A stretch of 64,000 nucleotides of DNA from a virus (IMGVR_UViG_3300021960_000019); one strand, 5' to 3'; positions 30,793 to 60,235 are shown, numbered from the stretch's first letter. Translations and numbers: made by a program. The notes: generated by a model not told the origin, from the sequence alone.

Positions 30793-32499
30793 ATGGCAAT
30801 TAATTTTCCAGATAGTCCAAGTGATGGGGATACTCACGAAGGATATGCGTATAATGCTACGACAGGTACGTGGGAAATCACTGTTGCGCCTATTAATGGT
30901 CCTATTACTGGTCATGTATTACCAGATACAACATTAACATACGATTTAGGTTCTGCAGATAAGAAATTTAGAGATATCTATCTATCATCTGGTACAATTT
31001 ATCTTGGAGATGAAAATTTATCAATTACAGATGGTCAACTTACAAGTTCTGCATCTATTGCTTCACCAGATTTAGATGTATCACTAATTCCAGAAAATAT
31101 GGAATTGGTTGTGAATGCAAACGAAGGTGGCCATGGAATGAATTGGTTTTGGACTTGGGGAGAAACTTTGTTATATGGTAGAGGTTCAGTTACAAATTCA
31201 AGTTCAGAAACGGAAGTACCACTCTATAGAGAAGGAACATATACCTTTGTAAACTTTGCATATACACAATATGGAGATATGACACAGACACATGCCGGTT
31301 ATTTAAAATCAGTTTTAGGAGCGGGTACAGATAATATAATTCCAGGCGTAACAAGCACTACAGAAGATCGTTTTAATTCGGTGGCTGGCGGAAACACACA
31401 GGTGCAGAAACATGTATGGACTATTCCATCCGATTTTTCAGCATCTGATATCACCTTAGTTGCGCCATCTATTTCTATGAATGTTTCTACAAATTCTGGT
31501 GCATATGATATAGATATTGTCCATGGTACAGATATTGAAGCAGTTTATCGTGGCGGAACTTATACGTTTAATTTAAATGTTACAGGACATCCATTTTATT
31601 TAACAACAGATGATGGCACAAACTGGACACAAGGTGGTTATGTTGGAGAATATACAAACGGTGTCTCTGGGTCTAGAACAGAAGTCGGCACTCTCACGTT
31701 TACAGTTCCCAATGATGCTCCTGATACACTATATTATCAGTGTGCAAATCATAGCGGAATGAAAGGTACAATTCATGTAAAAGATTTAGAAGTTGATGTG
31801 TTGGGTGACGCAGACAATTCTATTAGGATTTACTTTCAACACACACAATTTGGACATAAGACATCGTTTTTGATCAAAGACAAGCCAGTAATACCAACTA
31901 CTGCATGTTTAATGTATGATGGAACAAAATTTGTACCAACTCATATGAATGACTATCTTAATTCTCATGCAGAAGTTGAAACAAAAATAGGACAAATTGC
32001 CCAAACGAGTGTTACTAGTGTAAATTATAATAATTTAACAAATTTACCAACATTGTCTACCGTGGCCACTTCTAATGATTTTAATGATTTGACAAACAAA
32101 CCAACAGTACCCACAGATATAAACGAACTCTCTGATGGTTCTGGATTATTAACTGGTGGTGGTGTTGGATTGGGTGTCGTTAGTCTTGTACAGGAAGGCG
32201 AACTTTTAGTAACAACAGGAACTAAAAGATGGTATGCCCCAAGAAATATTGTGGTAAATAAAATAATTGCAAGGGTTGATACAGTTGCAGCTGGAAGTAG
32301 TATAAATATAACAATAAACAAAGTTTCTGGTGGAGCGACTACTACTAAAACAATGTCCATTGCTGCTGGTTCAACAAAACAAGAAGATACAAATCCAAGT
32401 TTTTCGTTGAATGCAGATGATTATATGACATTGGATATCACACAAGTCGGTAGTGGTACGGCCGGAGAAAATTTAAGAGTTACATTTACATATTCATAG
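30793..32499 (+). CDS. Cassette A gene 1: MAINFP anchor + cupredoxin-like domain + C-terminal RWYAP domain
   Basis: YRGGTYTF..GHPFY...YYQCANHSGM; GEL...GTKRWYAP; paralogous to 57914 and 53809. Confidence 0.7.
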   Translation: MAINFPDSPSDGDTHEGYAYNATTGTWEITVAPINGPITGHVLPDTTLTYDLGSADKKFRDIYLSSGTIYLGDENLSITDGQLTSSASIASPDLDVSLIPENMELVVNANEGGHGMNWFWTWGETLLYGRGSVTNSSSETEVPLYREGTYTFVNFAYTQYGDMTQTHAGYLKSVLGAGTDNIIPGVTSTTEDRFNSVAGGNTQVQKHVWTIPSDFSASDITLVAPSISMNVSTNSGAYDIDIVHGTDIEAVYRGGTYTFNLNVTGHPFYLTTDDGTNWTQGGYVGEYTNGVSGSRTEVGTLTFTVPNDAPDTLYYQCANHSGMKGTIHVKDLEVDVLGDADNSIRIYFQHTQFGHKTSFLIKDKPVIPTTACLMYDGTKFVPTHMNDYLNSHAEVETKIGQIAQTSVTSVNYNNLTNLPTLSTVATSNDFNDLTNKPTVPTDINELSDGSGLLTGGGVGLGVVSLVQEGELLVTTGTKRWYAPRNIVVNKIIARVDTVAAGSSINITINKVSGGATTTKTMSIAAGSTKQEDTNPSFSLNADDYMTLDITQVGSGTAGENLRVTFTYS

Positions 32500-32508
32500 G
32501 GGAATAAA

Positions 32509-32778
32509 ATGCCTATTACAGACGAAACAATAGTTGCAGATTTAAAATCTAAATATCAATTACCAGTAGATGAAGATGGTAATATGGAAACACTAACAGT
32601 GTATCGTTCTGCAACTGCAACCAACGATCAAATATCAAGAGAATATCTTTTTGGTGAAGATGACACTGATACTCAGTTGTTCGGTGGATTACATAACGGA
32701 CAACAAGAGATTGTAATCTTAGGATCACATTCATTAATAGATGCTGATAGTGTCTGGACAGAATTTACAGGAGAATAA
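32509..32778 (+). CDS. Cassette A gene 2: small acidic protein
   Basis: MPITD...VWTE; paralog of 57611-57901. Confidence 0.65.
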   Translation: MPITDETIVADLKSKYQLPVDEDGNMETLTVYRSATATNDQISREYLFGEDDTDTQLFGGLHNGQQEIVILGSHSLIDADSVWTEFTGE

Positions 32779-32782
32779 AGAA

Positions 32783-33922
32783 ATGTACGCAAAATTAGTC
32801 TCAAGTGGAAATAGCAGTGGCACTGGTACTCTCGCGGCAATAAATAACATCAGAAGTGTTCTGTCGGGAACCATTACTGATGCTAATAGTTTAGATTCGA
32901 ATGGACACAATCCTGGCCAGTCTTTTATTACAGGTTCTATGCCAAGTACAGGAATTTATTCTATTGGTGGCCTATCTGGCGGTACGACTAGTTATAATGG
33001 TTCCGGCAATTTCAGCATGACAAAACATCATTATGCAAAAGGTCAAACTGCTGGATACACGCCTTCAAGAAAAATTAAATTGATTGTCAATAGAGATTAC
33101 AGTTGGAGATTTACAGTATATGATTCTTCTAGTGGCAATGGACACCCACACTCAAATGATAATCATTTTTGGACTTCTGAAACCAGCACATCATATAGAA
33201 GGACACAGATTCCTCCTTATGACCAGCAAATGCCAAGTAAGTGGGATGAAATGCACATTATTATGAATGATACAACTTTTGCGTTTCAATTAATTACAAA
33301 TGGTACTGATTCTCAAAAAGATTATGCAACTTTTGTAGAGTGCGATTTAGAATATATGCCTTCTATCGATAATCATGCATATTCTGGAAATTCTAGATAT
33401 TGTCCTAGTATTCAATTTTATACTATTGTATATGATCAAATGCATAAGGCTGATGGAGTTGCTGCGCAGACAGGTACATATGGATTTTATTATGGAATTC
33501 ATAATTCACAATACTTGAGTATGGACGGAACATATAGAAACACTGAGCATGGTTCAAATTCAAATTATCATTATGGCGACCAAGATGCACAATATACCAA
33601 TTATCCTACAATGTGGCCGCTTGGTAGATCGAGAATGTATAAACATCCTATAGATGGCGGTCAATTTGGATATCCATTGGTGCCGATGCAATATAAAGGA
33701 CACTTTGATGATGAAGATGATAATGGAGATCCAAGATATGGTAGATTGATGAATTGGTATCGAACCACAGACGATATTGGATTTAGTGGAGATGTATTAA
33801 CAGAAAATTCAACAAATTACAGAATTTTTAGAACTCATAAATGCGGAAAAAACAATAGACTCGATGCTGGAAATGATTACAATGCATGTTATGCTTTCCC
33901 AGAAGATAACGTACCGTTCTGA
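32783..33922 (+). CDS. Cassette A gene 3: Tyr/Asn/Gly-rich structural protein
   Basis: TKHHY, D.RYG...YR..D, YRI, CYAFPE; paralog of 56479-57606. Confidence 0.65.
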   Translation: MYAKLVSSGNSSGTGTLAAINNIRSVLSGTITDANSLDSNGHNPGQSFITGSMPSTGIYSIGGLSGGTTSYNGSGNFSMTKHHYAKGQTAGYTPSRKIKLIVNRDYSWRFTVYDSSSGNGHPHSNDNHFWTSETSTSYRRTQIPPYDQQMPSKWDEMHIIMNDTTFAFQLITNGTDSQKDYATFVECDLEYMPSIDNHAYSGNSRYCPSIQFYTIVYDQMHKADGVAAQTGTYGFYYGIHNSQYLSMDGTYRNTEHGSNSNYHYGDQDAQYTNYPTMWPLGRSRMYKHPIDGGQFGYPLVPMQYKGHFDDEDDNGDPRYGRLMNWYRTTDDIGFSGDVLTENSTNYRIFRTHKCGKNNRLDAGNDYNACYAFPEDNVPF

Positions 33923-34113
33923 TGTCTACTGCAACCGAAATAGCAGCCGCAGGAGTTTTTAAGATTGCAAATGTTTCCAAATCTGGAACAGAGATTGGAA
34001 GTACATCTGCATTTAAACTCTCATTAAGATCTTTAAGTGCGATTAATATTGGATTTAAACCCAGTGAGGGTGTTGTATCGAATACTGACCCACAAACATG
34101 GACAGATAGTTAA
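33922..34113 (+). CDS. Cassette A gene 4: small protein ending PQTWTDS
   Basis: TGATG-coupled to gene 3; Q-x-W near the C-terminus like 55765 and 49724. Confidence 0.55.
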   Translation: MSTATEIAAAGVFKIANVSKSGTEIGSTSAFKLSLRSLSAINIGFKPSEGVVSNTDPQTWTDS

Positions 34114-34125
34114 GAGGAATAAAAA

Positions 34126-35568
34126 ATGGCAATAGATTTTCCAAGCAGTCCTACAGATGGACAAGAAGTTTCAATCACAGGACGTACTTTTAGATACTCC
34201 GCAGTTACAGGTGTTTGGAGAGTTTTGACAGGCACAGTAAGTAACGATATTTCTGAACTTGCAGACAGTACTGGACTATTAGGTTCTGGTGGTGCTACTG
34301 TCTATGCAGATATGGCAGCACTAATAGCCGCTACTGGAATGTCTAATGGAGATCAGGCATATGTCACAACAACTAACGATTTCTATCTGTATAATGGTGG
34401 TTGGTTTCTAATTGCAACTGGCGTAAATAATCCACCAAGTGCGATCTCTGGTGTTGATGTTAATTATAATCTTGCAAAAGACGGAACTGCAACTGTCATT
34501 ACAGCAATATCAACAGACCCAGAAGGATTTCCTTTAACATGGAGTTATGCAGTCACAACTGGTACTCTTGGAACAACAGCAACTGTATCTCAAACAAATA
34601 ATGTATTTACTATTACACCAAGTACTACAGAGGCGGATGCTGGAGAATTTTCTATCACATTTTCGGCAACTGATGGTGTAAACACAATAAGTGCAGTATC
34701 ATCTTTTGTACTTTCGTTTTCAGAAGATAATTATTTTATCGACCCTAGAGATTATGGTATGTCTACTGGAACTTTTTCTGGTGTTGGTGCAAATTCTAAT
34801 GATGAAAACCTCTATGTTTTGGGATATAGTGGAGACCAAAGAGTTTATAAATGGGAATTGGGAACACCAAAAGAACTAGCATCAATACCTAGTACCTATA
34901 CTCAGAGGGCAGGTATATCCAACGCCACACCTTCTGGATTTTATATGAACCGAGCTGGGGATCGATATTATTACTGTAGTTATGGTACTGTTTATCAAGT
35001 TAGTTTATCGACTCCAAACGATTTAACTACTGGTTATCTTTATCAAAACGGTTCCACATATAGTGGACAGGCATTTAATAATAGTGGACTTATTTTCGGC
35101 GCCACTTGGAGTCATACAGGAGATAGACTTTATATTAGTGAAACAAATACCAATCAAATACAAGAACATCCTGTAAATCTTGTCGGTGGATCGCCTTTTG
35201 ATTTGTATTATGTCCAGAACCGTACCAATTCATTTAATCCTAATAATATTACTTATGCTTATGGGATGGGATGGAGTTCTAATGGAATGAAATTTTGGTG
35301 TGGGGAAAATAGATATATCCGCGAATATTCCGCAGTTTCTGCATATTCATTATCGGGCATGAATGCAACCCCAAGCGCAACATTTGACACACAAAATTTA
35401 AATAATAATGTTAATAATTATACAGCAAACAATATTAATAATCCAGAGATCAGAGGTATACACGCATCGGATGACGGAAATACATTGTATTTAAACCTCA
35501 GAGGCGTTGGCGTTTTCAAACTTACTATGGTAACTCAAAATACAATCGCAGATGGTTTTGTATTTTAA
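34126..35568 (+). CDS. Fibre protein: MAIDFP anchor + Ig-like module + beta-propeller-like C-terminus
   Basis: Shares an 83-bp near-identical DNA block with 21083; repeated G..W...G.R.Y....Y.L..P.DL blades. Confidence 0.7.
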   Translation: MAIDFPSSPTDGQEVSITGRTFRYSAVTGVWRVLTGTVSNDISELADSTGLLGSGGATVYADMAALIAATGMSNGDQAYVTTTNDFYLYNGGWFLIATGVNNPPSAISGVDVNYNLAKDGTATVITAISTDPEGFPLTWSYAVTTGTLGTTATVSQTNNVFTITPSTTEADAGEFSITFSATDGVNTISAVSSFVLSFSEDNYFIDPRDYGMSTGTFSGVGANSNDENLYVLGYSGDQRVYKWELGTPKELASIPSTYTQRAGISNATPSGFYMNRAGDRYYYCSYGTVYQVSLSTPNDLTTGYLYQNGSTYSGQAFNNSGLIFGATWSHTGDRLYISETNTNQIQEHPVNLVGGSPFDLYYVQNRTNSFNPNNITYAYGMGWSSNGMKFWCGENRYIREYSAVSAYSLSGMNATPSATFDTQNLNNNVNNYTANNINNPEIRGIHASDDGNTLYLNLRGVGVFKLTMVTQNTIADGFVF

Positions 35569-49142: not shown

Positions 49143-49727
49143 ATGATTGCAAATAAAGAAAAAACAATACTAGTTGACTGTGATGGTGTGCTCCTTGATT
49201 GGGAGTATGCCTTTGACTGTTGGATGGCCCGGCATGGGTATCAAGTCATGAGTCATGGTGACTATAAAATGGACGTTAAATATGGACTTGATCGGAAAGA
49301 AAGTAAACGGTTGATTCGGATGTTTAACGAGAGTGCCTGGATACGGAAATTACCTCCCCTTCGGGATGCAATCAAGTATGTCAAAAAACTCCACGAAGAA
49401 CATGGTTATATTTTCCATGCGATTACTAGTTTGAGTAACGATCAATATGCACAACACCTTCGGACTAAGAACCTTCGGGAACTGTTTGGTGATAGTGCGT
49501 TTGAACGGTATGTTTATCTAGACACTGGTGCCGACAAAGACGAGGCTCTTGCCGAGTATCATGGTACTGGTTGTTATTGGGTTGAAGATAAACCTGAGAA
49601 TGCCGAAGTTGGACTTGATAACGGTTTACACAGTTTACTGGTTGCCCATGACCACAACACTGATTATGATGGTAGTGCTCATCGGGTTCGGAACTGGAAA
49701 GAAATCTATAATATTATTACTGATTAA
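49143..49727 (+). CDS. HAD-family 5'(3')-deoxyribonucleotidase-like protein
   Basis: LVDCDGVLLDW, ITS, K, WVEDK..N motifs. Confidence 0.8.
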   Translation: MIANKEKTILVDCDGVLLDWEYAFDCWMARHGYQVMSHGDYKMDVKYGLDRKESKRLIRMFNESAWIRKLPPLRDAIKYVKKLHEEHGYIFHAITSLSNDQYAQHLRTKNLRELFGDSAFERYVYLDTGADKDEALAEYHGTGCYWVEDKPENAEVGLDNGLHSLLVAHDHNTDYDGSAHRVRNWKEIYNIITD

Positions 49728-51646
49728 CTCCAAGACTGAATAGGACCACTACCTACTCCGCCTCCACCGCCGCCGGCATCTCCATCATCACCACCACTAT
49801 TTCCAGAACCAATTCTTGGGTCATTCTGTGGTGTAATAGTTTCAAAGTAACCATGTCCATCTCTTTCAAAATACCCCAATGGTGTTTGATTGGACGTAAA
49901 TATTACTAGTTGAACGGCATTACAGAAACTTGGTGATAGTGAGGCTTTATCGGCTTCTATACCTATGTATGTAGATGAGATAGGAATTTCTACAGGTGCT
50001 TTAGTTGTTGGATTGATATTAATACCAGTATTATTTTTAGAAGTTATAAAACTACCATTACTATCACTTGGTGGATTTTCAATTGATATTTTTTTATTGG
50101 TCAAAGTTTTTTCAATTGTAGTATCAGTATTATCAACAATTTTTAATTCTGTATTATTTATCCCACCATATGAACTATTAAATAAAGTTGGTGACTTTAT
50201 CGTTGATACGTTTTGATTTTTTATTACTCTATCAAAAGAATTGCGAGTGTTCAGTGTACCTGAGAAAGTTGGTGTAGGATCTAGATTAGTTTGAGAGAAT
50301 GACGCTGATAAAACTGATCCAACATTAGTTGATGGAAACTCAATGGTATTTGAACCTGTTGTCCAAACAAGTCTAACAGCTCCACCACCGCCGGGCCCAC
50401 CGCCTGCAGAAGTACCAGATCCTCCGCCGCCACCACCGAATTCTCCCCCTGCGATATCACCCTTACTGATTTTATTGTTTGATAGAGGTTCGCCATCATC
50501 ACCATCACCACCACCAGATCCACCTTTACCACCTTCGCCAGTTGTTGTTGACGCCGCGCCACTAGTTCCCTCACCAAAAAGTCCGACACCACCGCCGCCG
50601 GGCGATCCCCAAGTTGATGAATAATGCTGTCCAGCACCCCCACCGCCACCTTGTCCGGCATCACCATCACCACCATCGGCTCCCTGTCCAGAGTATCCTC
50701 CTGCACCACCACCACTTCGAGTCCAAGTTCCCTGATATCCACCATTACCACCTCGGCCGCCGCCATCACCAGTATATCCACCACCATAACCACCATTTCC
50801 AGAACCAGTTGAATCGGTGCCACCGCGACCTGCGCCAAATCCACAAACGGTAGTGTCACTAATAAAGTATGAATTGTTTCCCATCGCAGTTGAACTTGTT
50901 GCATTCGATACTAATGTAGGGCCCGCCGCACCGACTTCTACAGTATATGATTGGCCAGGCGTTACTGATATATTATTTTTATATCCAAGACCGCCTCCGC
51001 CGCCACCACCAGATGACCATTGATGTCCACCAGTACCACCAGAACCGACCGCAACAACACTAACTGAAGTAACTCCAGCTGGTGCAGTCCAAGAATATGT
51101 GCCTGGGGTTGTAAAACTCTGATTAAACATTGGATTACTTGCATCTGCGATACTAAAGTCAGCCCTAATAAACGCATAATTCACATTAACAGAAGAACCT
51201 AAAAAATTAAAGGTAGATGCATCATGAATTGGAATTTTAGAATTTGTTATTTTTGTTTCTAATGTATTTGTTGTGTTTCCAACATTGATATTAATATCTG
51301 CATTTTTTATGGCGAATCCAGTATTCCAAGTACCATTTTCTATTGGTATTGCTTTTGGTGGATATTTTGCAAGAATAGTAGTATCTGTACCATCAATAAT
51401 ATCAATTTTATTATTAAATTGTGGAACATTTTGATTTAAATTATTCCACACACCTTGATTGATTTGTATTTCTTTATTATTAATTATTGCATCAAGTGGA
51501 TTATTAAGTCTTGATGAAGTATCTTTAATTTCAATTGAAAGGGGCGGAAATGCCTGAATATTACTAGGAAGTGATTCAGGCCCCGCTTCTGCGTTAACTG
51601 TATTAAAACTAGTTTCTACAGAAACTGTTAGGGCCTGAATTGTCAT
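49724..51646 (-). CDS. Cassette C gene 4: Gly-rich virion protein ending PIQSWS
   Basis: FTTPGTYSWTAPAGVTSVSVVAVG.GG Gly-rich domain flanked by duplicated I.I.D.TDTT..K.I.IEN segments. Confidence 0.65.
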   Translation of the reverse strand: MTIQALTVSVETSFNTVNAEAGPESLPSNIQAFPPLSIEIKDTSSRLNNPLDAIINNKEIQINQGVWNNLNQNVPQFNNKIDIIDGTDTTILAKYPPKAIPIENGTWNTGFAIKNADININVGNTTNTLETKITNSKIPIHDASTFNFLGSSVNVNYAFIRADFSIADASNPMFNQSFTTPGTYSWTAPAGVTSVSVVAVGSGGTGGHQWSSGGGGGGGLGYKNNISVTPGQSYTVEVGAAGPTLVSNATSSTAMGNNSYFISDTTVCGFGAGRGGTDSTGSGNGGYGGGYTGDGGGRGGNGGYQGTWTRSGGGAGGYSGQGADGGDGDAGQGGGGGAGQHYSSTWGSPGGGGVGLFGEGTSGAASTTTGEGGKGGSGGGDGDDGEPLSNNKISKGDIAGGEFGGGGGGSGTSAGGGPGGGGAVRLVWTTGSNTIEFPSTNVGSVLSASFSQTNLDPTPTFSGTLNTRNSFDRVIKNQNVSTIKSPTLFNSSYGGINNTELKIVDNTDTTIEKTLTNKKISIENPPSDSNGSFITSKNNTGININPTTKAPVEIPISSTYIGIEADKASLSPSFCNAVQLVIFTSNQTPLGYFERDGHGYFETITPQNDPRIGSGNSGGDDGDAGGGGGGVGSGPIQSWS

Positions 51647-51659: not shown

Positions 51660-53522
51660 TTAGATTTCGATAGATGCAGCAACGTTAGTAAATCCAGCAC
51701 CAGTAACTTTTGTACCTACTTGCAACTCTCCAGTTGTTAACGTAGTCACAGTTTTTGTCGTAGTACCATCAGTAAACGTCATAGAAGAACCTTCAATAAC
51801 GAGTTTAACACTTGTTGCAATTCTTGTACCTGATGCATTTACTGCACTTACATCAATATATGTAGTAATATCACTACCAGAATATGTGTAACTTGTATTC
51901 TCTGGAGTTACAGTAATAGAAACAGGTAATGTTGGTGTTAATAGATGTAACTCTGGGTAGTCTCCACCATATACAGAGCTTGGTTTTGTATACCAAATTC
52001 TATCTAAACTATCTCTACCACATTCGTGAATATACCCATCGACAACTGATGTTTCAGTCCAACCAGTACTATCATTCCATGCATAAACCCTAAATGCACT
52101 TGTGAACCAGACCCCAATCATTGTATGAGAATCATTCAACCAAACCCATTGTCTTGGTGTTGAGGGCATTGTAATATCGCTATGATATGTAAGATCTTTT
52201 GGGTTTGCAGCATCTACTGAATATGTAACCCAAGTTCTCCACCCTTCATCTGTATCTTGAAATGTATATCTTCCGTCAATTCTAAATTCAGAAACATATC
52301 TAGTTCCACCACTCACCCAAGAAGTAGTACTCCATTGCATAGGATGATGCGCGCCGGTATATGCCGTAAATCCACTCAAATCTGCTTTAGTACTACTCAG
52401 AACATCCGTAGAGATATCAGTTTCTACCGCAAAGGTATCTGAAGATCTATCCCAAGTAACTACAAGTGGGTGCCAGTTGTAATACTGATCGTAGTAAGAT
52501 TTATAAAACAGCATATTAGTACCAGAAACACCTCTTGGATCGTCCATTACTTCAGAGAAGTTGGATGCAATCTCTTTACTGTTCATGTTGCTGCCACCAG
52601 AATGGGTGCCGGACGGTCCAATGGAATTGGTATAATTAAACATGTTGGTTGATGTTGGATTATAGTTACTTGTCCACATCTCTTTTGCAACTTTTATGTA
52701 GTTCCCAGTTGTACCACTAGAAGCTTGCTGTCCAGCAAACAAAAGTCCACCATCATTTGATTCACCCAAAAATTGTACTGTCCAATCATTACCCATTTGA
52801 TAAACATCTCTAGTATACTGAGATGGCCAGTTATTCGGCCACTGAGAACCAGATGTGCTATGATAACCAACTTTTAGTTTAAATGATGGATAATTATAGG
52901 TCGAACCCCCATCGTCACCACGACTCAATGCTGGTACAAATTTATCCGAACCATAGGCTTTTCCCCAGAAATGGTATCTATGTGAATAATTGTCGCTCCA
53001 GTTGGCATGTCTTGCAGTTGGTCTTACGTCATCCAAATTAGTTGTGTTTTCCATCTTTGGCCATGCAAATTGATAACAAGTGGCACTTTGATTATATGCC
53101 CACACAGGGGCCTCATCAACACCATCAGAAATCATTTGCATAGAACCGCCTTTGTATCCACCTTCACCTACACCGTTGGAGGTACAGGTTAATGACATAT
53201 CAATCCATGCGCCAGAGTCTGGTGTGTTTGCATAATCTGCGCTATTATCATCTGGTCTATTCGCACCATTTTGCATTTTAGCGAGACCCATGGAACTTCC
53301 AGTGTAAGGGCCGTTATGATTAATTCTATTGTCTAGATAATTTCGTTCCCATGAACCATCTGATGGATTGTCGTTAAAATTAATACTTTTATTATATTGC
53401 GGCGTTAAACTATTTTTATCGTGTTTATCACCGTTAATGTAGAATCCATCATTTCCTGCTCTTGGGTCTTCAAGTACAACAGGACGATTATAATCTCCTT
53501 CGTAATCCCATACCTTAGCCAT
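51660..53522 (-). CDS. Cassette C gene 3: large structural protein with C-terminal Ig-like domain
   Basis: Trp/Tyr-rich body; GRDSLDRIW; TPTLPVSIT...Y.YSG...VSA.N..G.RIA. Confidence 0.6.
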   Translation of the reverse strand: MAKVWDYEGDYNRPVVLEDPRAGNDGFYINGDKHDKNSLTPQYNKSINFNDNPSDGSWERNYLDNRINHNGPYTGSSMGLAKMQNGANRPDDNSADYANTPDSGAWIDMSLTCTSNGVGEGGYKGGSMQMISDGVDEAPVWAYNQSATCYQFAWPKMENTTNLDDVRPTARHANWSDNYSHRYHFWGKAYGSDKFVPALSRGDDGGSTYNYPSFKLKVGYHSTSGSQWPNNWPSQYTRDVYQMGNDWTVQFLGESNDGGLLFAGQQASSGTTGNYIKVAKEMWTSNYNPTSTNMFNYTNSIGPSGTHSGGSNMNSKEIASNFSEVMDDPRGVSGTNMLFYKSYYDQYYNWHPLVVTWDRSSDTFAVETDISTDVLSSTKADLSGFTAYTGAHHPMQWSTTSWVSGGTRYVSEFRIDGRYTFQDTDEGWRTWVTYSVDAANPKDLTYHSDITMPSTPRQWVWLNDSHTMIGVWFTSAFRVYAWNDSTGWTETSVVDGYIHECGRDSLDRIWYTKPSSVYGGDYPELHLLTPTLPVSITVTPENTSYTYSGSDITTYIDVSAVNASGTRIATSVKLVIEGSSMTFTDGTTTKTVTTLTTGELQVGTKVTGAGFTNVAASIEI

Positions 53523-53524
53523 TT

Positions 53525-53770
53525 CTATTCTCCTGCTGCGTTGTTAGTCTTAACCCAAGCAATTGCTTCGTCAAGGTCATTCCATGCAGTACGGCTTCCG
53601 TCTGCATCAAAATTGAATGGTTGATTAATTCTAATTACACCATCTTCGTCAGTTGCTGTAAAAATTCCATCAGTTAGATCGCCAGTAAGTGACACATCTA
53701 CTACTTCGTGTACCTCGTTTCCATCATCGTCTAACGAGATTTGGTTTTCTTTTATAGTAAAAACAGACAT
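53525..53770 (-). CDS. Cassette C gene 2: small acidic protein
   Basis: SD AAGGAG; NQPF.......W....EAIAW. Confidence 0.6.
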   Translation of the reverse strand: MSVFTIKENQISLDDDGNEVHEVVDVSLTGDLTDGIFTATDEDGVIRINQPFNFDADGSRTAWNDLDEAIAWVKTNNAAGE

Positions 53771-53798: not shown

Positions 53799-53806
53799 TA
53801 TTTATA
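53799..53806 (-). promoter_or_regulatory. T4-type late promoter TATAAATA (minus strand)
   Basis: TATTTATA on the + strand, upstream of 53770. Confidence 0.65.
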
Positions 53807-53808: not shown

Positions 53809-55752
53809 TTATGTTTGTTTATATTTGAACTGGATAACTAAATCTTCGCCTTTATTTGTAGTACCTATAGTTAGGATGTCTACTGTCAAGTAATCCCCAG
53901 CATTCATATTCCATGTTTTGTTTGTGCCCGTAGGTGATGCAGTTGTTTGTCCACCCAAGATATCTATTGAAGATTGTGAAACATCATTCTTATTTATTTG
54001 AATTGATACAGTTGCATCTGCCGAGACATTCAACTTTGGTATAGTGTCTGATATAGTTAAATCATATGGTGCATACCATCTTGCAGTACCAGTATGTACT
54101 TGCAATTCGCCTTGTTGATATAAATTTGTCACAAATGTAGTTTGATCTTTTACTTTGGTTAGATTAGTAATAGTATCATCTGTTACCTTTTCAACAATTC
54201 TTTCTTCTGCGACATCTTTAACTTTTTCTTTAAAAACATTTGTTTGTTCTAAATACACGCCCAAATCTTGCGGTTCAAATTTTTGTGTAGTCGAGTTATA
54301 TACTAAACATACCTGTCCTACAATAGTAGGTACTGGTTTTATTTCTACTGGTGTTTTATGGCCCTGTTGATCATGTTGAAAATATAAAATATAATTACCA
54401 TCAACATTAGTTTCCACAGCAAGATCTTTGATTGCAATCTCGCCTTGCATTGCACCATGAATTCCACACTGATAAAATAGTGTATCTGGTGCATCCATGG
54501 GCACAGTAAATGTAACAGTACCAACATCTGTACGAGAACCAGTGACTCCACTAGTATATTCGTCTACATATGAACCACTAATAAAGTTTGCACCATTATC
54601 AGTTGTCAAATAGAATGGATGCCCTGATGCATCAACATTAAATGTATAGGTGCCTCCACGATATAATGGAGTCAGTGTTGGATTATCACCAAATGCATTA
54701 CCACCAAAAGTATAATTACCAGTATTAACAAAAGAAACATCGTATGAAACTGATGGATTCGTTAAAGTTGGTGGTGTTATGGTTGATGGTACAGAAATAT
54801 TTATTCTCTGCACTTCTGTTTCGGAACCACCCCTAACACTATCAAATGTAATATCTTGTACATTCAATGTAGATGTTGCCCACGAAACTAGGTTGTCAGT
54901 ACCAGGCCCATCAACCCACTTTAGATAAATCTTGTGAGTTTGAGTTAATGAAGTATCGGTTAAATCATGTGCCGCGAAATTAAACACGGTATACGTACCT
55001 TGGTTATAAATTGGCACATTTGATTGTGTTTGATTTCGAATAGTTGTTCTGGCATATGGTAAAGACCCTGCATCCCAACTCCACAACCAATCCATTCCGG
55101 CGCCGCCGCCGGCCATATTTGCATCTACTGCAATAGTTAAAGTTTCTGGTGGTATGTCTAATGTGACATTATCTAAGTCGTGAACATCATTTGGTACTGT
55201 ACCAGACGGCAATCTCAAATTTCCTTCACTATCAAGATCAATTTGATTTGTACCAACTTTTAATGCATCAACTACAATCCCAGATGCATCAGAAGAAATT
55301 GTAGTATCGCCCAAATGAATTGTATTTGAACTTAAATATAAATCTCTAAACTTATTGGTTGCACTACCTAAATCATATGTCTCATTAGAATCGGGTAAGA
55401 TGTGTCCTGATACACTACCAAGTTTAGTCTGTACCTTTGTGTCTGTGTAGTAAAGATTTGTCGTTCCTTCTGGTAAATTGTCAGAATTACCAACTTGTTG
55501 TTCAACACTAGTTGGATTTCTAAGTTTGTTTACTGCATCAGCTAGTTTTTTAATTTGTTCTGGAGTTGCAGATGAGTATAGTTGATTAACCCTTGAATTT
55601 AGTGCAGTCTCAATACTAGAATTTTCTTTTTGTCCTAATGCAGCGGCAGAACGCGAAAGTGCGAGCAACTCTTCGACACCAGCACTAGGTATATTACTAA
55701 GAATTTCTGCCGTAAGAGCTGATATAGATGTGTTTAGATTTGCATCTGCCAT
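53809..55752 (-). CDS. Cassette C gene 1: MAD anchor + cupredoxin-like domain + RWYAP domain
   Basis: YRGGTYTF..GHPFY...FYQCGIHGAM; GELQVHTGTARWYAP. Confidence 0.7.
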   Translation of the reverse strand: MADANLNTSISALTAEILSNIPSAGVEELLALSRSAAALGQKENSSIETALNSRVNQLYSSATPEQIKKLADAVNKLRNPTSVEQQVGNSDNLPEGTTNLYYTDTKVQTKLGSVSGHILPDSNETYDLGSATNKFRDLYLSSNTIHLGDTTISSDASGIVVDALKVGTNQIDLDSEGNLRLPSGTVPNDVHDLDNVTLDIPPETLTIAVDANMAGGGAGMDWLWSWDAGSLPYARTTIRNQTQSNVPIYNQGTYTVFNFAAHDLTDTSLTQTHKIYLKWVDGPGTDNLVSWATSTLNVQDITFDSVRGGSETEVQRINISVPSTITPPTLTNPSVSYDVSFVNTGNYTFGGNAFGDNPTLTPLYRGGTYTFNVDASGHPFYLTTDNGANFISGSYVDEYTSGVTGSRTDVGTVTFTVPMDAPDTLFYQCGIHGAMQGEIAIKDLAVETNVDGNYILYFQHDQQGHKTPVEIKPVPTIVGQVCLVYNSTTQKFEPQDLGVYLEQTNVFKEKVKDVAEERIVEKVTDDTITNLTKVKDQTTFVTNLYQQGELQVHTGTARWYAPYDLTISDTIPKLNVSADATVSIQINKNDVSQSSIDILGGQTTASPTGTNKTWNMNAGDYLTVDILTIGTTNKGEDLVIQFKYKQT

Positions 55753-55764: not shown

Positions 55765-56475
55765 TTAGAACCAAATTTGCGTTGTAGAGACTACTTCTTC
55801 TTCATCATCATCTTCTCTGATGTGTTCTGCGATTGCTCTATCATCACTAACACCAGTAAATAATAGTGGTAGTCCATCTTGTCCTACCCACTTTCCAACA
55901 TTAGGACTAATAATGTTCAATCCCAAATTGGTGGCGGGAATAGTTATAGAAAATTGTTCTGCTATAAGTGGCGTTTGCAGATTTTGTACATTGCCCATTG
56001 CAGTAATAGGACTGTCGAGATCTGGTTCGAGTCCTGTCTCAGAACCAGCAATATCATCTGTTGCACCACCAGAGTAAGTTCTACTTAAATCCCATTTACC
56101 ACCAGATTTGAGTAAGTTTGAACCATCAACAAAAAGTCTTGGAATATCTTCAGTTATTCCAGTAGGTACAAGGTTTGCTGGTGCTGTACCATAAAACAAA
56201 AATACATATGGTTCACTCATTCCAGCATGTTCGAGTGTTACTGAAGGGGGGGTTCCCAAATATTCAACTTTGTTTCCATCTTCTCCTACAATTGTAGCTG
56301 CACCAGCAACACTAGATATAGAAGAAACGCCACCCGGCGCTAAATTAATATCATATTGTGTCACATCAGATGGACTCAATATAGAAGAAACTCCACCTGA
56401 CGCCAAAAGAATCTCAGCTTGACCCATATTACTGGGTGAGCTGAGATTATTTGTGTTACTGTGCCCTACGGTCAT
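55765..56475 (-). CDS. Cassette B gene 4: acidic protein ending TTQIWF
   Basis: Packed in operon; Q-x-W at the C-terminus. Confidence 0.6.
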   Translation of the reverse strand: MTVGHSNTNNLSSPSNMGQAEILLASGGVSSILSPSDVTQYDINLAPGGVSSISSVAGAATIVGEDGNKVEYLGTPPSVTLEHAGMSEPYVFLFYGTAPANLVPTGITEDIPRLFVDGSNLLKSGGKWDLSRTYSGGATDDIAGSETGLEPDLDSPITAMGNVQNLQTPLIAEQFSITIPATNLGLNIISPNVGKWVGQDGLPLLFTGVSDDRAIAEHIREDDDEEEVVSTTQIWF

Positions 56476-56478
56476 TTA

Positions 56479-57606
56479 TTATGGACCAGTGATATTAGAT
56501 TCTGGTACTGCGTAACAACATACGCGATATCCATGATCCGCCGGTTGACTTCCTGACATGCCGCCTTTGATAATTCTATAATAATCACTACCAACTTGCA
56601 ATCTGTTGCCTTGGTTCGCAGTACCCATGTTGTCGGCAATTCTATAAATCCCTAACATCTGACCATATCGAGTGTCATTTTGTTGTGGCGATTGGTAGTT
56701 CCAATCTTGAAATGTTGGTGTAACATAACATGGATGTAATAGAGATGCAAAACCAGCATTAGTTGGGGTTTCTCTTACCGATTTTCTGCCCATTGGAGTC
56801 ATGAATAAATAATTTTGATATTGACTAGTGTAGTTACTAGAAGACCATCCCACATGATAACCACCATTGGTCTGGGTAGTATTTCTATATTGTTGTGTCT
56901 CATCAAACATCTGGAATCTATATAAACTATATGCCGCAGTAATCGAAGTGTTACCATTTGATACAATACCATATGAACCGGCAGAGAGCATACAACCAGC
57001 ATAATATCTATCATTTACGTCAACATGATAATCATCATAATCTGATACAGTTGGATAATCCCCCCAATGTTTAAACGCAATAGGTTGTTGGAATTGTTGA
57101 TTGTTTGGATCGCCATGTGCTGCAAATGTGAAACTACAATCAGTGATGTTAAGATCTATTGAACGACAATTGTACATGTTACTATCACCTATCTCAATAC
57201 TACTTGAGGCCATCGTCATGTAATCGCTTTCTGAAGATGGGTTTGCTCTGTACTTGTCGTTAACTCCCATCGCAAACCCAATTGATGAACTCCACCCCAG
57301 AGTAATTTTCATTGTTTGGGTGTTTGTACTGGTTTTATTTGCATGATCGTAGTGTTTTTTGGTAAACTCCCACCTACCCGAAGTATAATTCTGAGCAGAA
57401 GTATAAATTCCATTTGATGGTTTTGTACCAACAATATATGATGATGCAGTATCGATAAGATTTCCACTACTTACTGCGGCACCAAACTGTGCAATCGTAG
57501 TAATTGTTGGAGTGTCTTTGATTGTATTCCATACCGCTGACCAAATTTGTTCAGCTTGGGATGTACTTGTCGATCCTGTTGGTTTAAATTCTAAGTGTAT
57601 ATACAT
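56479..57606 (-). CDS. Cassette B gene 3 (paralog of 32783-33922)
   Basis: TKKHY, DTRYG...YR..D, YRI, CYAVPE. Confidence 0.65.
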   Translation of the reverse strand: MYIHLEFKPTGSTSTSQAEQIWSAVWNTIKDTPTITTIAQFGAAVSSGNLIDTASSYIVGTKPSNGIYTSAQNYTSGRWEFTKKHYDHANKTSTNTQTMKITLGWSSSIGFAMGVNDKYRANPSSESDYMTMASSSIEIGDSNMYNCRSIDLNITDCSFTFAAHGDPNNQQFQQPIAFKHWGDYPTVSDYDDYHVDVNDRYYAGCMLSAGSYGIVSNGNTSITAAYSLYRFQMFDETQQYRNTTQTNGGYHVGWSSSNYTSQYQNYLFMTPMGRKSVRETPTNAGFASLLHPCYVTPTFQDWNYQSPQQNDTRYGQMLGIYRIADNMGTANQGNRLQVGSDYYRIIKGGMSGSQPADHGYRVCCYAVPESNITGP

Positions 57607-57610
57607 TTTT

Positions 57611-57901
57611 TTACTCCGTTACCTCTGTCCATACGTTATCTTCGTCTTTTAATGCAACAGTTCCTAAGAATAAGATTTCATTCCCAGAACCATATGCAAT
57701 CGATGATTGATCTTCAACTAAGTATGACAATTGTTTTTGATCTTCTGTTGCACTATCAGTTGTAAACACTGAAATCGAATCTGGTGTTGCAAGTGGTGTT
57801 TCGACAACAAGTTGTCCATCATCGTCTATTGTATTATTTAGTGACTGAATCGCATACTTTCCCATATATTCTTCGATAGTCGCTGTATCTGTTATTGGCA
57901 T
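57611..57901 (-). CDS. Cassette B gene 2 (paralog of 32509-32778)
   Basis: MPITD...VWTE. Confidence 0.65.
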   Translation of the reverse strand: MPITDTATIEEYMGKYAIQSLNNTIDDDGQLVVETPLATPDSISVFTTDSATEDQKQLSYLVEDQSSIAYGSGNEILFLGTVALKDEDNVWTEVTE

Positions 57902-57913
57902 TTTTAACTCCTA

Positions 57914-60235
57914 TTATGTTGTATAAAATATTTGAACATTTAAATTTTCGCCCGGCGTTGAACCCACATTTGTGATGTCAATTGTAAGATAATCACCCTC
58001 ATTCATTGAAAATCCAGATGTTTCTGTTTGTTCTAAACTTCCTGCGCTTATATTTATAATTTTTGAACTTACGTCATTCTTCTTGATATCGACTCTTAAC
58101 ACATCATTTCCAGCAGTAGTTATTCTAGCTTTAATCTTAGATATTGTTAAATCATCTGGGGCATACCATCTTGTCACACCTGTAGTTAGTGCGAGTGTAC
58201 CATTTTGTGCCATATTAACAGTTTGTGTTATTGACGCATTACTAACCTGAGAATTTACATAACTTTCTGTTGCAAGTCCTGATATAGATGGAATTGATGG
58301 TTGATTTGACAAATCATTATAGTTTCCAGAGAATGTATTTGATGAAACCTGAGAATTTACATAACTTTCCGTTGCAAGGCCCGTAAGGTCTGATTGGGAA
58401 ATTGTTTCTACCCATGAATCTGTTGCATTTTTATAAATGTATAGTTTCTGAGTATCTTCTACAAATGCAATATCTCCTATAGTGTTGCCAACGGCTGGTA
58501 GATATGTTGCATCACTATAAATCTCAACACTTGCAACTAGAGATGTACCATCTGGTGCAACCAATGTTGCAGTACCAGCAACCTCTTTAATTTTGTTTTT
58601 GAATGCTGGTGTGTTCTCTACGTAAGTCGCTAAATCTTGTGGTACAAACTTTGATGTATTTGCATCATAAACAAGACACATTTGAGATGTGAGTGTAGGA
58701 ATAGGACGCAATTCAATCTTTTGTTCATGTCCTTCTTGTGAGTGTTGTCCATAAATGATGTAATTACCGTTTTCATTAGTTTCTACCGCAAGATCACGTA
58801 CCCTGATAGTACCACGCATTGCACTATGAATACCACATTGATAAAACAATGTATCTGGTGCATTTGATGGTACAGTAAATGTAATAGTACCACTTTCTGT
58901 GCGAGAACCAGTTACACCTGAAGTCCATTCTCCAAAATATGTGCCAGATGAATAATTAGTTCCATTGTCAGTTGTAAAGTAAAATGGATGGCCGGTTGCA
59001 TTGATATTTACTGTATAAGTGCCGCCACGAAAGAATGGTCCGATTTCAGGATTTTGACCCATTTGAGTTCCAGTGAAAACGTAGGCTCCTGTTGTATGTC
59101 CGACTGTATATGTAACTGATGGTGCAGTTAAAGTTGGTGGAGTGATAGTAGATGGTACGTTTACTGTCAATCTTTGTACATCTTGTGTTGTGCCACTATT
59201 GATATCTGGATGTGAATCACTTACTATCTGACTTGTTGACCAACTTACAAGATTATCATCACCAGCACCTTCAATCCACTTCAGTTTGAATGCGTGTGTT
59301 TGTGTCATATTATCATGAAGTGTATGTGCAAAGTTGTTAATTTGATAAGAACCTTGCATATACAATGGCACAACATTTTGTGGCGAATTTGTGATTGGAG
59401 TACGTGCATACGGTAGTGATGATTGCAACCATGTCCATAACCACGGTGATTCGTGACCAGCTTCTGGTGCATCGACTTGTATTTCCAATGTTTCTGGTGC
59501 AACATCAGTATCAACATTGGTTAAATCATTAATCTGTGTAGGTACAGGGTCAGTACCAACTTTAGATCCAGCTGGTAAAGAAACTAAACCATTTGTATCT
59601 GATGTAATTTGTGCATTACCAAGATGAATAGTGTTTCCACTTAAATATGCATCTCTAAATCTTAGTGAGGATGTACCCAAATCATAAGTTTCATTTGTGT
59701 CTGGAATAATACTTTGTGATACCGAAGCGGGATTGAAACTTGATACGTTAGAATCTACATAAGATTTAGTTGCGGCATCATTTGCATCTAGAGGTGCAAG
59801 TAATCCTGTTACCTTCCCTGCATATACTGTATTAAACTTATATAGTGCTTCTCCAAGATTTCTTGTTACATCTGCATCTGGTTTAATATTCGTAGTTAGT
59901 GATTGTAATTCTGTATTTAAATTTGCGGTTGATAAAAATTTATTATTAACGCCATCAATAATATCATCCGCACTAGAAATAGTACTACCAGCAACGTCAT
60001 TTTTTACTTGTTTTACTGCCTGTGCTAGATCTTTAATTTCTTCAACTGTGGCACCAGATGTGAGAGCGTTTGCCCTCGTATTAATCGCAGACTCCACAGA
60101 TGTATCTTCTGTAAGTCCTAGTGCCTTCGCAGAACGTGCAAGATGAACCAATTCTTTTACACTTGCCGAAGCAATGTCATTGATAATCTTAGTACGTAAT
60201 GCGGTTATTGAAGAAGTGAGTAGTGAATCGGCCAT
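57914..60235 (-). CDS. Cassette B gene 1: MAD anchor + cupredoxin-like domain + RWYAP domain
   Basis: FRGGTYT..GHPFY...FYQCGIHSAM; GVTRWYAP; internal GLATESYVNSQVS x2. Confidence 0.7.
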   Translation of the reverse strand: MADSLLTSSITALRTKIINDIASASVKELVHLARSAKALGLTEDTSVESAINTRANALTSGATVEEIKDLAQAVKQVKNDVAGSTISSADDIIDGVNNKFLSTANLNTELQSLTTNIKPDADVTRNLGEALYKFNTVYAGKVTGLLAPLDANDAATKSYVDSNVSSFNPASVSQSIIPDTNETYDLGTSSLRFRDAYLSGNTIHLGNAQITSDTNGLVSLPAGSKVGTDPVPTQINDLTNVDTDVAPETLEIQVDAPEAGHESPWLWTWLQSSLPYARTPITNSPQNVVPLYMQGSYQINNFAHTLHDNMTQTHAFKLKWIEGAGDDNLVSWSTSQIVSDSHPDINSGTTQDVQRLTVNVPSTITPPTLTAPSVTYTVGHTTGAYVFTGTQMGQNPEIGPFFRGGTYTVNINATGHPFYFTTDNGTNYSSGTYFGEWTSGVTGSRTESGTITFTVPSNAPDTLFYQCGIHSAMRGTIRVRDLAVETNENGNYIIYGQHSQEGHEQKIELRPIPTLTSQMCLVYDANTSKFVPQDLATYVENTPAFKNKIKEVAGTATLVAPDGTSLVASVEIYSDATYLPAVGNTIGDIAFVEDTQKLYIYKNATDSWVETISQSDLTGLATESYVNSQVSSNTFSGNYNDLSNQPSIPSISGLATESYVNSQVSNASITQTVNMAQNGTLALTTGVTRWYAPDDLTISKIKARITTAGNDVLRVDIKKNDVSSKIINISAGSLEQTETSGFSMNEGDYLTIDITNVGSTPGENLNVQIFYTT

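Follow-up and report, generated by a model that had tools for sequence, protein, structure and literature searches.

The pairing of a C-terminal fibre domain, the RWYAP knob, with a Q-x-W peptide at the end of a protein encoded downstream is found again behind unrelated fibres, in one cultured and many uncultured phages, and, read from sequences, points to an undescribed plug-and-socket for exchangeable host-binding tips. We describe it from a viral window of 64,000 nt (IMGVR_UViG_3300021960_000019), whose source is a marine T4-like phage with OM43 phage Melnitz as closest cultured relative and Pelagibacter phage HTVC008M as the next. Gene order, homologies, predicted folds, co-occurrence and covariation of the terminal peptide with the knob clade were observed. 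In our judgement it is somewhat more probable than not that the knob carries a docked fibre tip of several proteins, with the tail of gene 4 as its plug.

Organization of the three cassettes

The earlier note had described a four-gene cassette occurring three times in the window, as A on the plus strand and as B and C on the minus strand. The three sets of genes were recovered exactly at the positions it gives, in one shared order:

30793..32499, plus strand: gene A1, 568 aa, fibre shaft (by paralogy and AF2 model)
32509..32778, plus strand: gene A2, 89 aa, pI 4.1, small acidic protein of type 2A
32783..33922, plus strand: gene A3, 379 aa from its likely start, globular, fold like JBD30 gp47/gp48
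33922..34113, plus strand: gene A4, 63 aa, minimal form of gene 4, ending ...DPQTWTDS
57914..60235, minus strand: gene B1, 773 aa, fibre shaft with cupredoxin-like domain and knob
57611..57901, minus strand: gene B2, 96 aa, pI 4.1, homolog of A2 (E 1e-9)
56479..57606, minus strand: gene B3, 375 aa, homolog of A3 (E 1e-13)
55765..56475, minus strand: gene B4, 236 aa, ending ...TTQIWF
53809..55752, minus strand: gene C1, 647 aa, fibre shaft with knob
53525..53770, minus strand: gene C2, 81 aa, pI 4.1, type 2C
51660..53522, minus strand: gene C3, 620 aa, type 3C
49724..51646, minus strand: gene C4, 640 aa, 19% Gly, ending ...GPIQSWS
60267..60274, minus strand: TATAAATA box of the T4 late-promoter type, 32 nt 5' of the B1 start
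53799..53806, minus strand: TATAAATA box in the C1-C2 gap

The cassette genes are tightly packed: most gaps measure 2-13 nt, A3 overlaps A4 by 1 nt, and 38 nt separate C1 from C2. The position of the TATAAATA boxes is only suggestive, since they are no more numerous in the window than expected by chance.

The three gene 1 products are paralogs according to blastp (A1/B1 37%, E 7e-113; A1/C1 39%, E 1e-112; B1/C1 45%, E 6e-156). Homology was also found between A2 and B2 (32%, blastp E 1e-9) and between A3 and B3 (26%, blastp E 1e-13), while C2, C3, C4, A4 and B4 had no pairwise blastp match among the cassettes. Profile-profile comparison of type A with type C gave no match in either the gene-2 or the gene-3 family. 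Cassette C thus resembles A and B only in gene 1, gene order, gene sizes and the acidity of gene 2; the claim of a threefold occurrence holds for these traits and is too strong on homology, since genes 2-4 of C have no detectable relation to those of A and B. Gene 2 is a small acidic protein of 81-96 aa with a pI of 4.1 in all three cassettes, gene 3 is homologous in A and B and different in C by both methods, and gene 4, with sizes of 63, 236 and 640 aa, carries Q-x-W at or near its end each time.

The shaft gene and the RWYAP knob

The motifs noticed earlier in gene 1 (W.W.W, YRGGTY, GHPFY, C-x2-H-x2-M, RWYAP and DY.T.D) were all recovered, and 32 relatives keep them with almost no change. 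A1, modelled with AF2 (m320ca22dca52, pLDDT 75), has a short N-terminal address, followed by a beta-rich shaft, the cupredoxin-like domain, a helical neck and, at the C-terminus, the knob; the N-terminal address of B1 has about 80 aa and is of the MAD type. The domains discussed below are located as follows:

31459..31791, plus strand: cupredoxin-like domain of A1 (residues 223-333), ligand set H266/C317/H320/M323
32164..32496, plus strand: RWYAP knob of A1 (residues 458-568), jelly-roll
57917-58249, minus strand: RWYAP knob, C-terminal part of B1
53812-54144, minus strand: RWYAP knob, C-terminal part of C1

Residues ~223-333 of A1 are predicted to form a Greek-key beta-sandwich of the cupredoxin fold (rusticyanin 1cur, Z 8.9; AcoP 7z3b, Z 8.1; Cupredoxin_1 4hcf, Z 8.0), and the best Foldseek matches of this domain are copper nitrite reductases and laccases. 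The putative copper ligands H266, C317, H320 and M323 (His ... Cys-x2-His-x2-Met) are invariant in 32 sequences. No Pfam family was found at E <= 0.1 in the cupredoxin-like region of A1, B1 or C1. Compared with Pfam and PHROGs, gene 1 did not match any T4 gp34, gp35, gp36 or gp37 family, and its sole PHROGs match, to the C-terminal part of phrog_677 (cyanophage 'gp9' connector), lies within the cupredoxin domain.

The knob of A1, in the monomer model, is a TNF/C1q-like jelly-roll sandwich of ~110 residues. Its best structural match is the C-terminal triple jelly roll of the long tail fibre of phage 7-7-1 (9rkv_M, Z 9.3, 104 residues), followed by the KHP40 cement protein (7dou, Z 9.2), 4-1BBL (6fib, Z 8.9), XepA (6i56, Z 8.8) and PRD1 P5 (1yq5, Z 7.6). 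A Z of ~9 is also common to many TNF/C1q-like jelly rolls. No Pfam match was obtained for the knob, and its profile retrieved LecA alone among PDB sequences, weakly (E 0.09). The domain occupies the C-terminus in 44/44 ORFs, as it does with few exceptions in the 150 best representatives; it belongs to a large family (6,726 clusters at 50% identity) that caps many shaft types.

This fold is the usual distal receptor-binding head of trimeric fibres, as in PRD1 P5, the Bd2133 fibre and BclA. Gene 1 might hence be a complete fibre with the knob as its receptor-binding head, and genes 2-4 might encode non-structural assembly factors in the manner of T4 gp38/gp57A, lambda Tfa or Mu gpU; these would fold or trimerise the knob and hold it by the Q-x-W tail. 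Because jelly-roll knobs are typical of such heads too, we leave this chaperone reading a place in the discussion, as an unlikely one. In T4, lambda, Mu and P2, a chaperone gene typically lies directly 3' of the gene for the fibre and varies together with the C-terminus of that fibre, and such genes would produce an identical genomic pattern.

Conservation of the neighbourhood

The earlier note had proposed a survey of the gene neighbourhood. The lack of a conserved neighbourhood elsewhere, which would have counted against its reading, is clearly contradicted: the RWYAP domain and the downstream genes were found together in about 25 of 26 relatives and in 0/18 relatives devoid of the domain. 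The count included gene-1 relatives with at least 3 kb of downstream sequence, 26 with the knob and 18 with other C-termini. Behind the knob, gene 2 was present in 24/26, gene 3 in 25/26 and a gene with a Q-x-W tail in 23/26; two exceptions for the tail (L011 and L037) were regained by a stop-to-stop ORF search. Each of the three was found in 0/18 of the knob-less relatives.

The knob and downstream genes also occur behind unrelated shafts of collagen-like, Mtd_N and PTR types. A collagen-like shaft is followed by 2C, 3C and a Gly_rich_2 protein ending QFWF in L081, and an Mtd_N-type shaft by 2C, 3C and a 203-aa protein ending QYWSS in L082. Another collagen-like shaft, in L086, precedes 3A and two further proteins, of 488 aa and of 97 aa, the latter ending QYWGGF. 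The tail in L088 reads ...EQWT, and no recognisable tail was seen in L089, a distant context of the knob. In the cultured Alteromonas podophage R22Y, a PTR shaft with the knob is followed by a 277-aa gene and then by one for a Laminin_G_3 protein that ends in IQFW.

The proposal of the earlier note, a stalk that bears an exchangeable tip on its terminal domain, is well supported by this conserved neighbourhood, including the unrelated shafts and the recombinant cassettes described below. The genes might otherwise be independent fibre or adhesin genes, brought side by side by duplication and shuffling of a host-recognition cluster and not assembled jointly. In related pelagimyophages the region is indeed a hypervariable host-recognition cluster (PMC7029224), and gene 1 is the sole homologous gene between cassette C and A/B. 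The strictness of the association (0/18 against ~24/26), the recurrence of the pairing behind unrelated shafts and in a podovirus, and the conservation of the terminal peptide on otherwise unrelated proteins all argue against independent genes, which we regard as very improbable.

Gene 4 and its terminal peptide

Gene 4 ranges from 57 to 640 aa and nearly always ends with a linker, often Gly-rich, followed by Q-x-W. Among ORFs of at least 50 aa in the window, an ending of [QE]-x-W plus no more than 4 residues is found solely in gene 4 of A, B and C, and the background of such endings in related loci is 8/883 ORFs (0.9%). Among cassettes, the bodies of gene 4 hold domains of lectin/CBM type (Laminin_G_3, Gly_rich_2/CBM-like); C4 itself has Gly_rich_2 and a weak CBM_4_9 match.

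The variant of the tail tracks the knob clade and not the type of gene 3. Knobs ending ..TVTFTYS are paired with the tail AQSWSDG, whether gene 3 is of type A or C, whereas the tail is DPQ[ST]WTDS in the clade of the window-A knob and [IV]Q[TS]W[YFS] in that of C. The cassettes of L004 and L017 are recombinant, with a B-like knob and a C-type gene 3, and their gene 4 is a mosaic: the body is similar to C-type gene 4 (E 3e-4), and the last 14-18 residues are 89-93% identical to A-type gene 4 of the same knob clade. As L004, L013 and L017 all represent one recombinant, the covariation of tail and knob corresponds to few independent lineages. Nothing but the knob and the tail is common to the A-type, C-type and R22Y cassettes.

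Genes 2 and 3

The ORF of A3 opens at 32741 (32741-33922, 393 aa). The true start is most likely the ATG at 32783 (MYAK...), which has a GGAG ~10 nt 5' and where both the alignment of all relatives and the ordered part of the model begin. The model (md27e9fff5f31, pLDDT 84.8, pTM 0.88) has the fold of JBD30 gp47/gp48 (8rk3_c, Z 15.8, 269/317 residues, rmsd 3.9), the next best match reaching Z 5.2, and Foldseek retrieved two JBD30 8rk3 chains (E 7e-7 and 1e-4). Identity to JBD30 8rk3 is 12%; the profile of gene 3A (44 sequences) gave nothing among PDB sequences at E <= 1, and a tblastn search of 50,697 phage records found nothing. Among the matches of gene 3A in BFVD are proteins of phages AchV4, KL1 and FoX4 that are annotated 'virion structural protein'. 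Since G, K, D, P, P, R, G and Y are the residues that stay invariant in the 3A family, a nitrilase-type Glu-Lys-Cys triad cannot be strictly conserved. In C3, the last 160 aa match phrog_20698 and phrog_22549. Gene 2 is missing in the cassettes of R22Y, L086 and L088, and is thus not essential to the system.

These proteins bear on the assembly-factor explanation. In size, gene 2 and the short gene 4s (57-72 aa) would fit chaperones. Against it, the fold of gene 3A is that of virion arm proteins (JBD30 gp47/gp48) and of proteins annotated as virion structural, and gene 4 bodies of up to 640 aa with Laminin_G_3 and Gly_rich_2/CBM-like domains suit adhesins better. Three or four helpers per fibre would also be unusual, in particular when they exceed the fibre in size, as in cassette C where genes 2-4 total 1341 aa and the C1 fibre has 647 aa.

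The tip might also be mounted on the knob by a conserved N-terminal strand-helix module of gene 3, the tail of gene 4 then binding gene 3 or another virion part. Such docking by gene 3 rather than gene 4 is suggested by the first ~60 residues of 3A, which align with the N-terminus of a protein encoded after the knob in L088 that is otherwise unrelated to it (hhalign probability 88%, E 3e-6). Many post-knob proteins begin with a similar M-A-x-hydrophobic-K strand pattern, and gene 3 is directly 3' of the knob gene where gene 2 is absent. We nevertheless find this arrangement quite doubtful, a shade more so than that of assembly factors: the tail variant follows the knob clade even across differing gene-3 types, and 3A and 3C, without detectable homology, have the tail in common.

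Proposed assembly

In the docked-tip model, the proteins of one cassette would together make up one tail fibre of a marine T4-like phage. Gene 1 would be the shaft, with its N-terminus as address for the baseplate or another fibre, and a beta-rich stalk including the cupredoxin-like domain would lead through the helical neck to the jelly-roll knob, which would be a socket rather than the end of the fibre. The downstream products would form a separately encoded, exchangeable tip on it. Gene 4 would act as the connector: its N-terminal part would match the type of gene 3, its middle would consist of almost nothing (57-72 aa forms) or of a lectin/CBM-like adhesin domain, and its C-terminal linker and Q-x-W would plug into the knob. 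Gene 3 would be a globular virion protein, with an arm-protein fold in type A, and gene 2 its small acidic partner, a different one for each gene-3 type, possibly an adaptor or assembly factor. We infer here the physical contacts, the trimeric state, the stoichiometry and the location in the virion. With socket and plug inherited together, tips could be swapped between shafts by recombination, and the phage may display three such assemblies alongside other fibres.

It is possible, at somewhat short of even chances, that the knob and the C-terminal Q-x-W form a general plug-and-socket, used in thousands of phage lineages, in myoviruses and podoviruses, to mount unrelated adhesins on unrelated shafts. 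If so, sequence could tell which fibre a tip belongs to, and the evolution of host range would proceed by exchange of matched plug-socket pairs.

Comparison with known systems

The T4 long tail fibre (gp34-gp35-gp36-gp37, with gp38/gp57A) similarly consists of several consecutively encoded proteins, the distal parts being placed on the far end of the proximal shaft, and the cassettes are likewise a row of four genes in a T4-like phage. However, they have no sequence or profile relation to it (Pfam, PHROGs), their proposed joint is a jelly-roll knob, and their distal proteins are globular (3A) or lectin-like (gene 4), whereas those of T4 are fibrous trimers. The gp38 of T2/S16 type is a separate, exchangeable adhesin encoded just 3' of gp37, on the C-terminal end of which, a trimer, it docks via its N-terminal domain; compared by description, the cassettes differ in that their conserved element is a C-terminal Q-x-W peptide and in having two or three extra genes. 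In CBA120 TSP1-4, G7C gp63.1/gp66 and the lactococcal BppU-BppA-BppL, an anchored protein has a docking domain for separately encoded, swappable receptor-binding proteins, which dock by their N-terminus. The mounting principle is the one proposed here, but docking domains and orientation are different and, compared by description, no homology is apparent.

The best structural match of the RWYAP knob, gp015 of Agrobacterium phage 7-7-1 (PDB 9rkv), carries its 'triple jelly roll' at the C-terminus of a trimeric long tail fibre (PMC12796354). It differs from the knob in having no sequence relation to it, and a Q-x-W plug is not described for gp015. JBD30 gp47/gp48 (PDB 8rk3) are virion proteins forming a lateral arm that embraces the type IV pilus and sits on the Dit and upper baseplate protein of a siphovirus (PMC11445458). 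The cassettes share with them the predicted fold of gene 3A, but at 12% identity and with no profile match, and the JBD30 arm is not carried by a fibre knob. In L053, L077 and L086, 3A is followed by another gene of about its length, in likeness to the gp47/gp48 pair, but this gene has no detectable homology to 3A.

Three cassettes in a marine T4-like myovirus

The window covers part of the genome of a marine T4-like myovirus. Its long run of fibre genes adjoins genes for a T4-type DNA polymerase, UvsX, a DnaB-like helicase, primase and ribonucleotide reductase, and for a conserved gene of the window the nearest relatives from cultured phages are those of OM43 phage Melnitz (63% identity) and, next, Pelagibacter phage HTVC008M (45%). 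The genes compared in this section are the following:

30793-34113, + strand: cassette A (genes A1 to A4)
60235-55765, - strand: cassette B (genes B1 to B4)
55752-49724, - strand: cassette C (genes C1 to C4)
25490-28231: fibre gene with the N-terminal stretch of B1 and C1
28311-30785: fibre gene with the N-terminal stretch of A1
34126-35568: second fibre gene with the N-terminal stretch of A1

All twelve cassette ORFs lie exactly at the coordinates that the earlier note had assigned to them. The gene-1 products, made of a fibre shaft and a C-terminal knob (the RWYAP domain), are paralogs by blastp (A1/B1 37%, A1/C1 39% and B1/C1 45% identity; E 1e-112 to 1e-156). A2 and B2 are homologous (E 1e-9) and so are A3 and B3 (E 1e-13), C3 matching neither, as the earlier note had proposed for gene 3. 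No pairwise blastp match was found between C2, C3 or C4 and the genes of A and B, and hhalign of enlarged family profiles detected no relation of the gene-2 and gene-3 types of A and B (2A and 3A) to those of C (2C and 3C). Therefore, the threefold recurrence claimed in the earlier note holds as an arrangement, whereas homology across all three cassettes is restricted to gene 1. On the null profile comparison, the idea that cassette C is a diverged copy of the whole cassette was rejected.

The first 78 residues of B1 and C1 are common to the first of the three other fibre genes, and the first ~30-40 residues of A1 to the two others, which indicates, on sequence grounds, that gene 1 and other fibres of this phage have N-terminal addresses in common. 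These three neighbours reuse the two gene-1 address types (MAD... and MAINFP...) and end in TIG, three Laminin_G_3 stretches and Ig-like domains, with neither a knob nor downstream tip genes.

A conserved neighbourhood behind the knob

IMG/VR was scanned with the gene-1 alignment, yielding 473 relatives, and 77 loci were kept. In these loci, a profile of the knob (last ~110 residues) identified 44 ORFs and lay at the protein end in all 44. They are almost always followed by an ORF of 75-101 aa, then by gene 3, either of type 3A (353-405 aa) or of type 3C (602-609 aa), and then by a protein of very variable size. Only unique gene-1 relatives followed by 3 kb or more of sequence were used to count co-occurrence; they are related sequences and not independent trials. 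Relatives with the knob were accompanied by gene 2 in 24/26 cases, by gene 3 in 25/26 and by a gene with a terminal Q-x-W in 23/26, whereas those sharing the shaft and the cupredoxin-like domain but having another ending (741-1350 aa) presented none of the three (0/18). The split is complete, and the conserved neighbourhood anticipated by the earlier note is thus present in other genomes. The type of gene 2 always goes with the type of gene 3, not with the subtype of gene 1. Indeed, a B-like gene 1 precedes 2C and 3C at three loci (L004, L013 and L017), and a C-like gene 1 precedes 3A at two (L047 and L050).

The terminal peptide of gene 4

The Q-x-W at or near the end of gene 4 is the most informative detail of the earlier note, and it was seen in both cassette types. 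Gene 4 can be as short as 57 or as long as 640 aa, and most of its bodies have no relation to one another; in both types it ends with a linker, often Gly-rich, followed by Q-[STIFYVR]-W and 0-4 residues (for example DPQTWTDS, AQSWSDG, IQTWY, IQSWS or QIWF). Most of the apparent exceptions could be explained: at L053 and L077 the tailed gene comes fifth in the cassette, at L040 it comes after an uncalled gap, and at L011 the tail is on a small ORF outside the initial ORF chain. A Q-x-W ending occurs in 8 of the 883 other ORFs of the loci, and in the window it is confined to the three gene 4s. When knob domains are arranged in a tree, tail variants go with the knob clade, not with the gene-3 type. 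The clearest case is that of L004 and L017, where the body of gene 4 is C-type-like (E 3e-4 to C4) and the final 14-18 residues share 89-93% identity with those of A-type gene 4s behind the same knob clade.

A 489-aa protein of the window (23364-24833) and C4 (49724-51646, - strand) have in common a Gly_rich_2 domain and matches to phrog_2295 and phrog_863; of the two, C4 alone carries the tail.

Knob and tail on other shafts

A search of 1.84 billion representative proteins with a knob-only profile matched 6,726 clusters (50% identity) with E <= 1e-3, 1,789 of them with E <= 1e-10. The knob is nearly always at the very C-terminus, in proteins of 93-2,328 aa, and among the proteins inspected there were shafts with collagen-like GYTGS repeats, with repeats of other types and with Mtd_N-type starts. 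Genomic contexts were fetched for nine knob proteins with shafts other than the cupredoxin type. Collagen-like shafts precede 2C, 3C and a Gly_rich_2 protein ending in QFWF at L081, and 3A, then proteins of 488 aa and 97 aa, the latter ending in QYWGGF, at L086. At L082, T4 gp13/14/15-like neck genes adjoin a Mtd_N-type shaft, behind which lie 2C, 3C and a protein of 203 aa that ends in QYWSS; behind the knob gene of L088 lie a protein of 339 aa and one of 86 aa that ends in EQWT. The Alteromonas podophage vB_AmeP-R22Y (PP212876.1, 4282-7947, a record without annotation) is the only cultured phage found with the system; it encodes a 676-aa PTR-repeat fibre ending in the knob, then a 277-aa gene product and a 266-aa Laminin_G_3 protein ending in PIQFW. 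At L084 (6875-10884) and L090 (7080-9876), the order is knob, 3C, 2C, 3C up to the contig end; 2C precedes the second 3C only, which suggests that it is not needed for every 3C protein. No tail was seen at L089, a distant, GC-rich context. Overall, a tailed gene is present in five of the six contexts complete enough to judge, R22Y included, and knob and tail are the sole elements common to all these cassettes.

This context evidence shows that the knob and the genes downstream of it function jointly, as a unit that moves from shaft to shaft. A multi-protein fibre is the mechanism considered most likely: the knob would be a socket, the C-terminus of gene 4 a plug, and the exposed tip would consist of the gene-4 body and gene 3, joined by gene 2 in the cassettes that have it. 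As a variant, docking could be performed by gene 3 through its conserved N-terminal ~60 residues. This would agree with the recurrence of that stretch in the L088 protein, whose first 59 residues gave the only hhalign match of the 3A profile among other post-knob proteins; there was none to the proteins of R22Y (277 aa), L053 (376 aa), L077 (382 aa), L086 (488 aa) and L087 (417 aa).

Rhodococcus phage Grayson (3858-6599) was considered as a member of the system and rejected, the knob-like match of gp74 being too weak (tblastn E 2e-3). Two genes downstream, gp76 ends in ESQW, also too weak to count; from their sequences, gp74 and gp76 hint at an extension of the system to actinophages.

Predicted folds and the possible role of the downstream genes

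Pfam searches gave no match for A1-A4, B2-B4, C2 and C3, and only sub-threshold ones for B1 (NigD_N) and C1 (End_tail_spike, covering the YDLGS motif). Similarly, there was no match in PHROGs for genes 2, 3A and A4/B4, none by PDB sequence searches for B1, the 3A profile and the knob profile, no informative one in the ESM Atlas for A3 or C3, and none by tblastn of A3 against cultured phages. B1 matched cultured phages through its cupredoxin domain only (cyanophage gp9-like and fibre genes).

In the AF2 model of A1 (32 sequences, pLDDT 75, high in domains), residues 223-333 are predicted to adopt a cupredoxin fold (rusticyanin Z 8.9, AcoP Z 8.1), with an amicyanin-like ligand set H...C-x2-H-x2-M that is invariant in 32/32 sequences, and a copper site in the virion fibre is possible. 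This domain lies inside the fibre shaft (31459-31791 in A1, with counterparts in B1 and C1); it is the part matching phrog_677 (cyanophage "gp9 baseplate wedge tail fibre connector") and also matches fibre genes of P-SSM2, Bellamy and others.

The knob (A1 residues ~455-568) is modelled as a jelly roll, whose top structural match is the C-terminal "triple jelly roll" of the phage 7-7-1 long tail fibre (Z 9.3; PMC12796354), followed by a trimeric phage cement protein, TNF-family ligands, XepA/YomS, PRD1 P5 and a Bdellovibrio fibre head. The model thus places it in the fold class of trimeric fibre knobs, a Z of ~9 indicating fold class and not kinship. That fold class speaks for the main rival explanation, according to which the knob itself is the receptor-binding head and genes 2-4 encode assembly factors, and so does the location of these genes, where fibre chaperone genes usually are; genes 3 and 4, by their folds and their sizes, argue against it. 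The AF2 model of A3 is confident (44 sequences, pLDDT 84.8, pTM 0.88) and globular, and only the JBD30 baseplate entry 8rk3 stands out among its matches (Z 15.8, 269 residues aligned; next Z 5.2). Two chains of this entry are matched, one of 317 residues (Foldseek E 7e-7) and one of 305 (1e-4). Judging from how long the chains are and how much they resemble each other, they most probably correspond to gp47 and gp48. In JBD30 these are described as a pair of similar "tail fibre forming" proteins, three heterodimers of which build the bent arm embracing the type IV pilus (PMC11445458). Large gene 4s carry lectin/CBM-type domains and, together with the virion-arm fold of 3A, these fit structural and host-binding roles, as in the multi-protein fibre proposed here.

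The 3A fold also occurs in proteins annotated as virion structural in several siphophages, within a library of predicted viral structures. The gene 3A family itself is small and unnamed (38 clusters among 5.8 billion proteins) and absent from 50,697 phage records. At L053 (1980-4471), L077 (9762-12382) and L086 (4507-7399), 3A is followed by a protein of 376-488 aa and then by a small Q-x-W-tailed gene; this second protein has a similar strand pattern at its start, with no detectable homology, and by analogy with JBD30 gp47/gp48 the pair may form a two-protein arm.

Significance for host recognition

Multi-component or adaptor-mounted fibres are well known, as exemplified by T4 gp34-37, gp38 mounted on gp37 in T2 and S16, the branched complexes of CBA120 and G7C, and BppU-BppA-BppL, so that the kind of system is not new. 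As far as could be determined, its parts are new: the knob, without match in Pfam and with no PHROGs match over it, the C-terminal Q-x-W, which may be a docking signal, and the two families of tip proteins, neither peptide nor families having been found in the literature searched. In pelagimyophages and related marine T4-like phages, tail fibres are reported not to have been identifiable within the large hypervariable host-recognition cluster (PMC7029224). The present finding, drawn by genomic inference, gives this cluster some structure in the form of a widespread knob, a short terminal peptide that marks the protein likely to partner it, and two tip-protein families, one of them sharing its fold with arm proteins that bind pili. 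Should the plug-and-socket mechanism be true, tip-to-fibre assignments would become predictable from metagenomes, host-range modules could be delimited, and both host and phage are in culture for a test with Alteromonas phage R22Y.

Minor observations

One TATAAATA box precedes B1 by 32 nt and another falls between C1 and C2; the number of such boxes in the window is not above chance (14 found vs 8.7 expected). A3 probably starts at 32783 rather than 32741: the ORF from 32741 overlaps A2 by 38 nt, and the ATG at 32783 is backed by relatives, by the structure model and by a GGAG ~10 nt upstream. Finally, a giant fibre protein of 2328 aa (P0044) from the knob search ends with two tandem knob domains.
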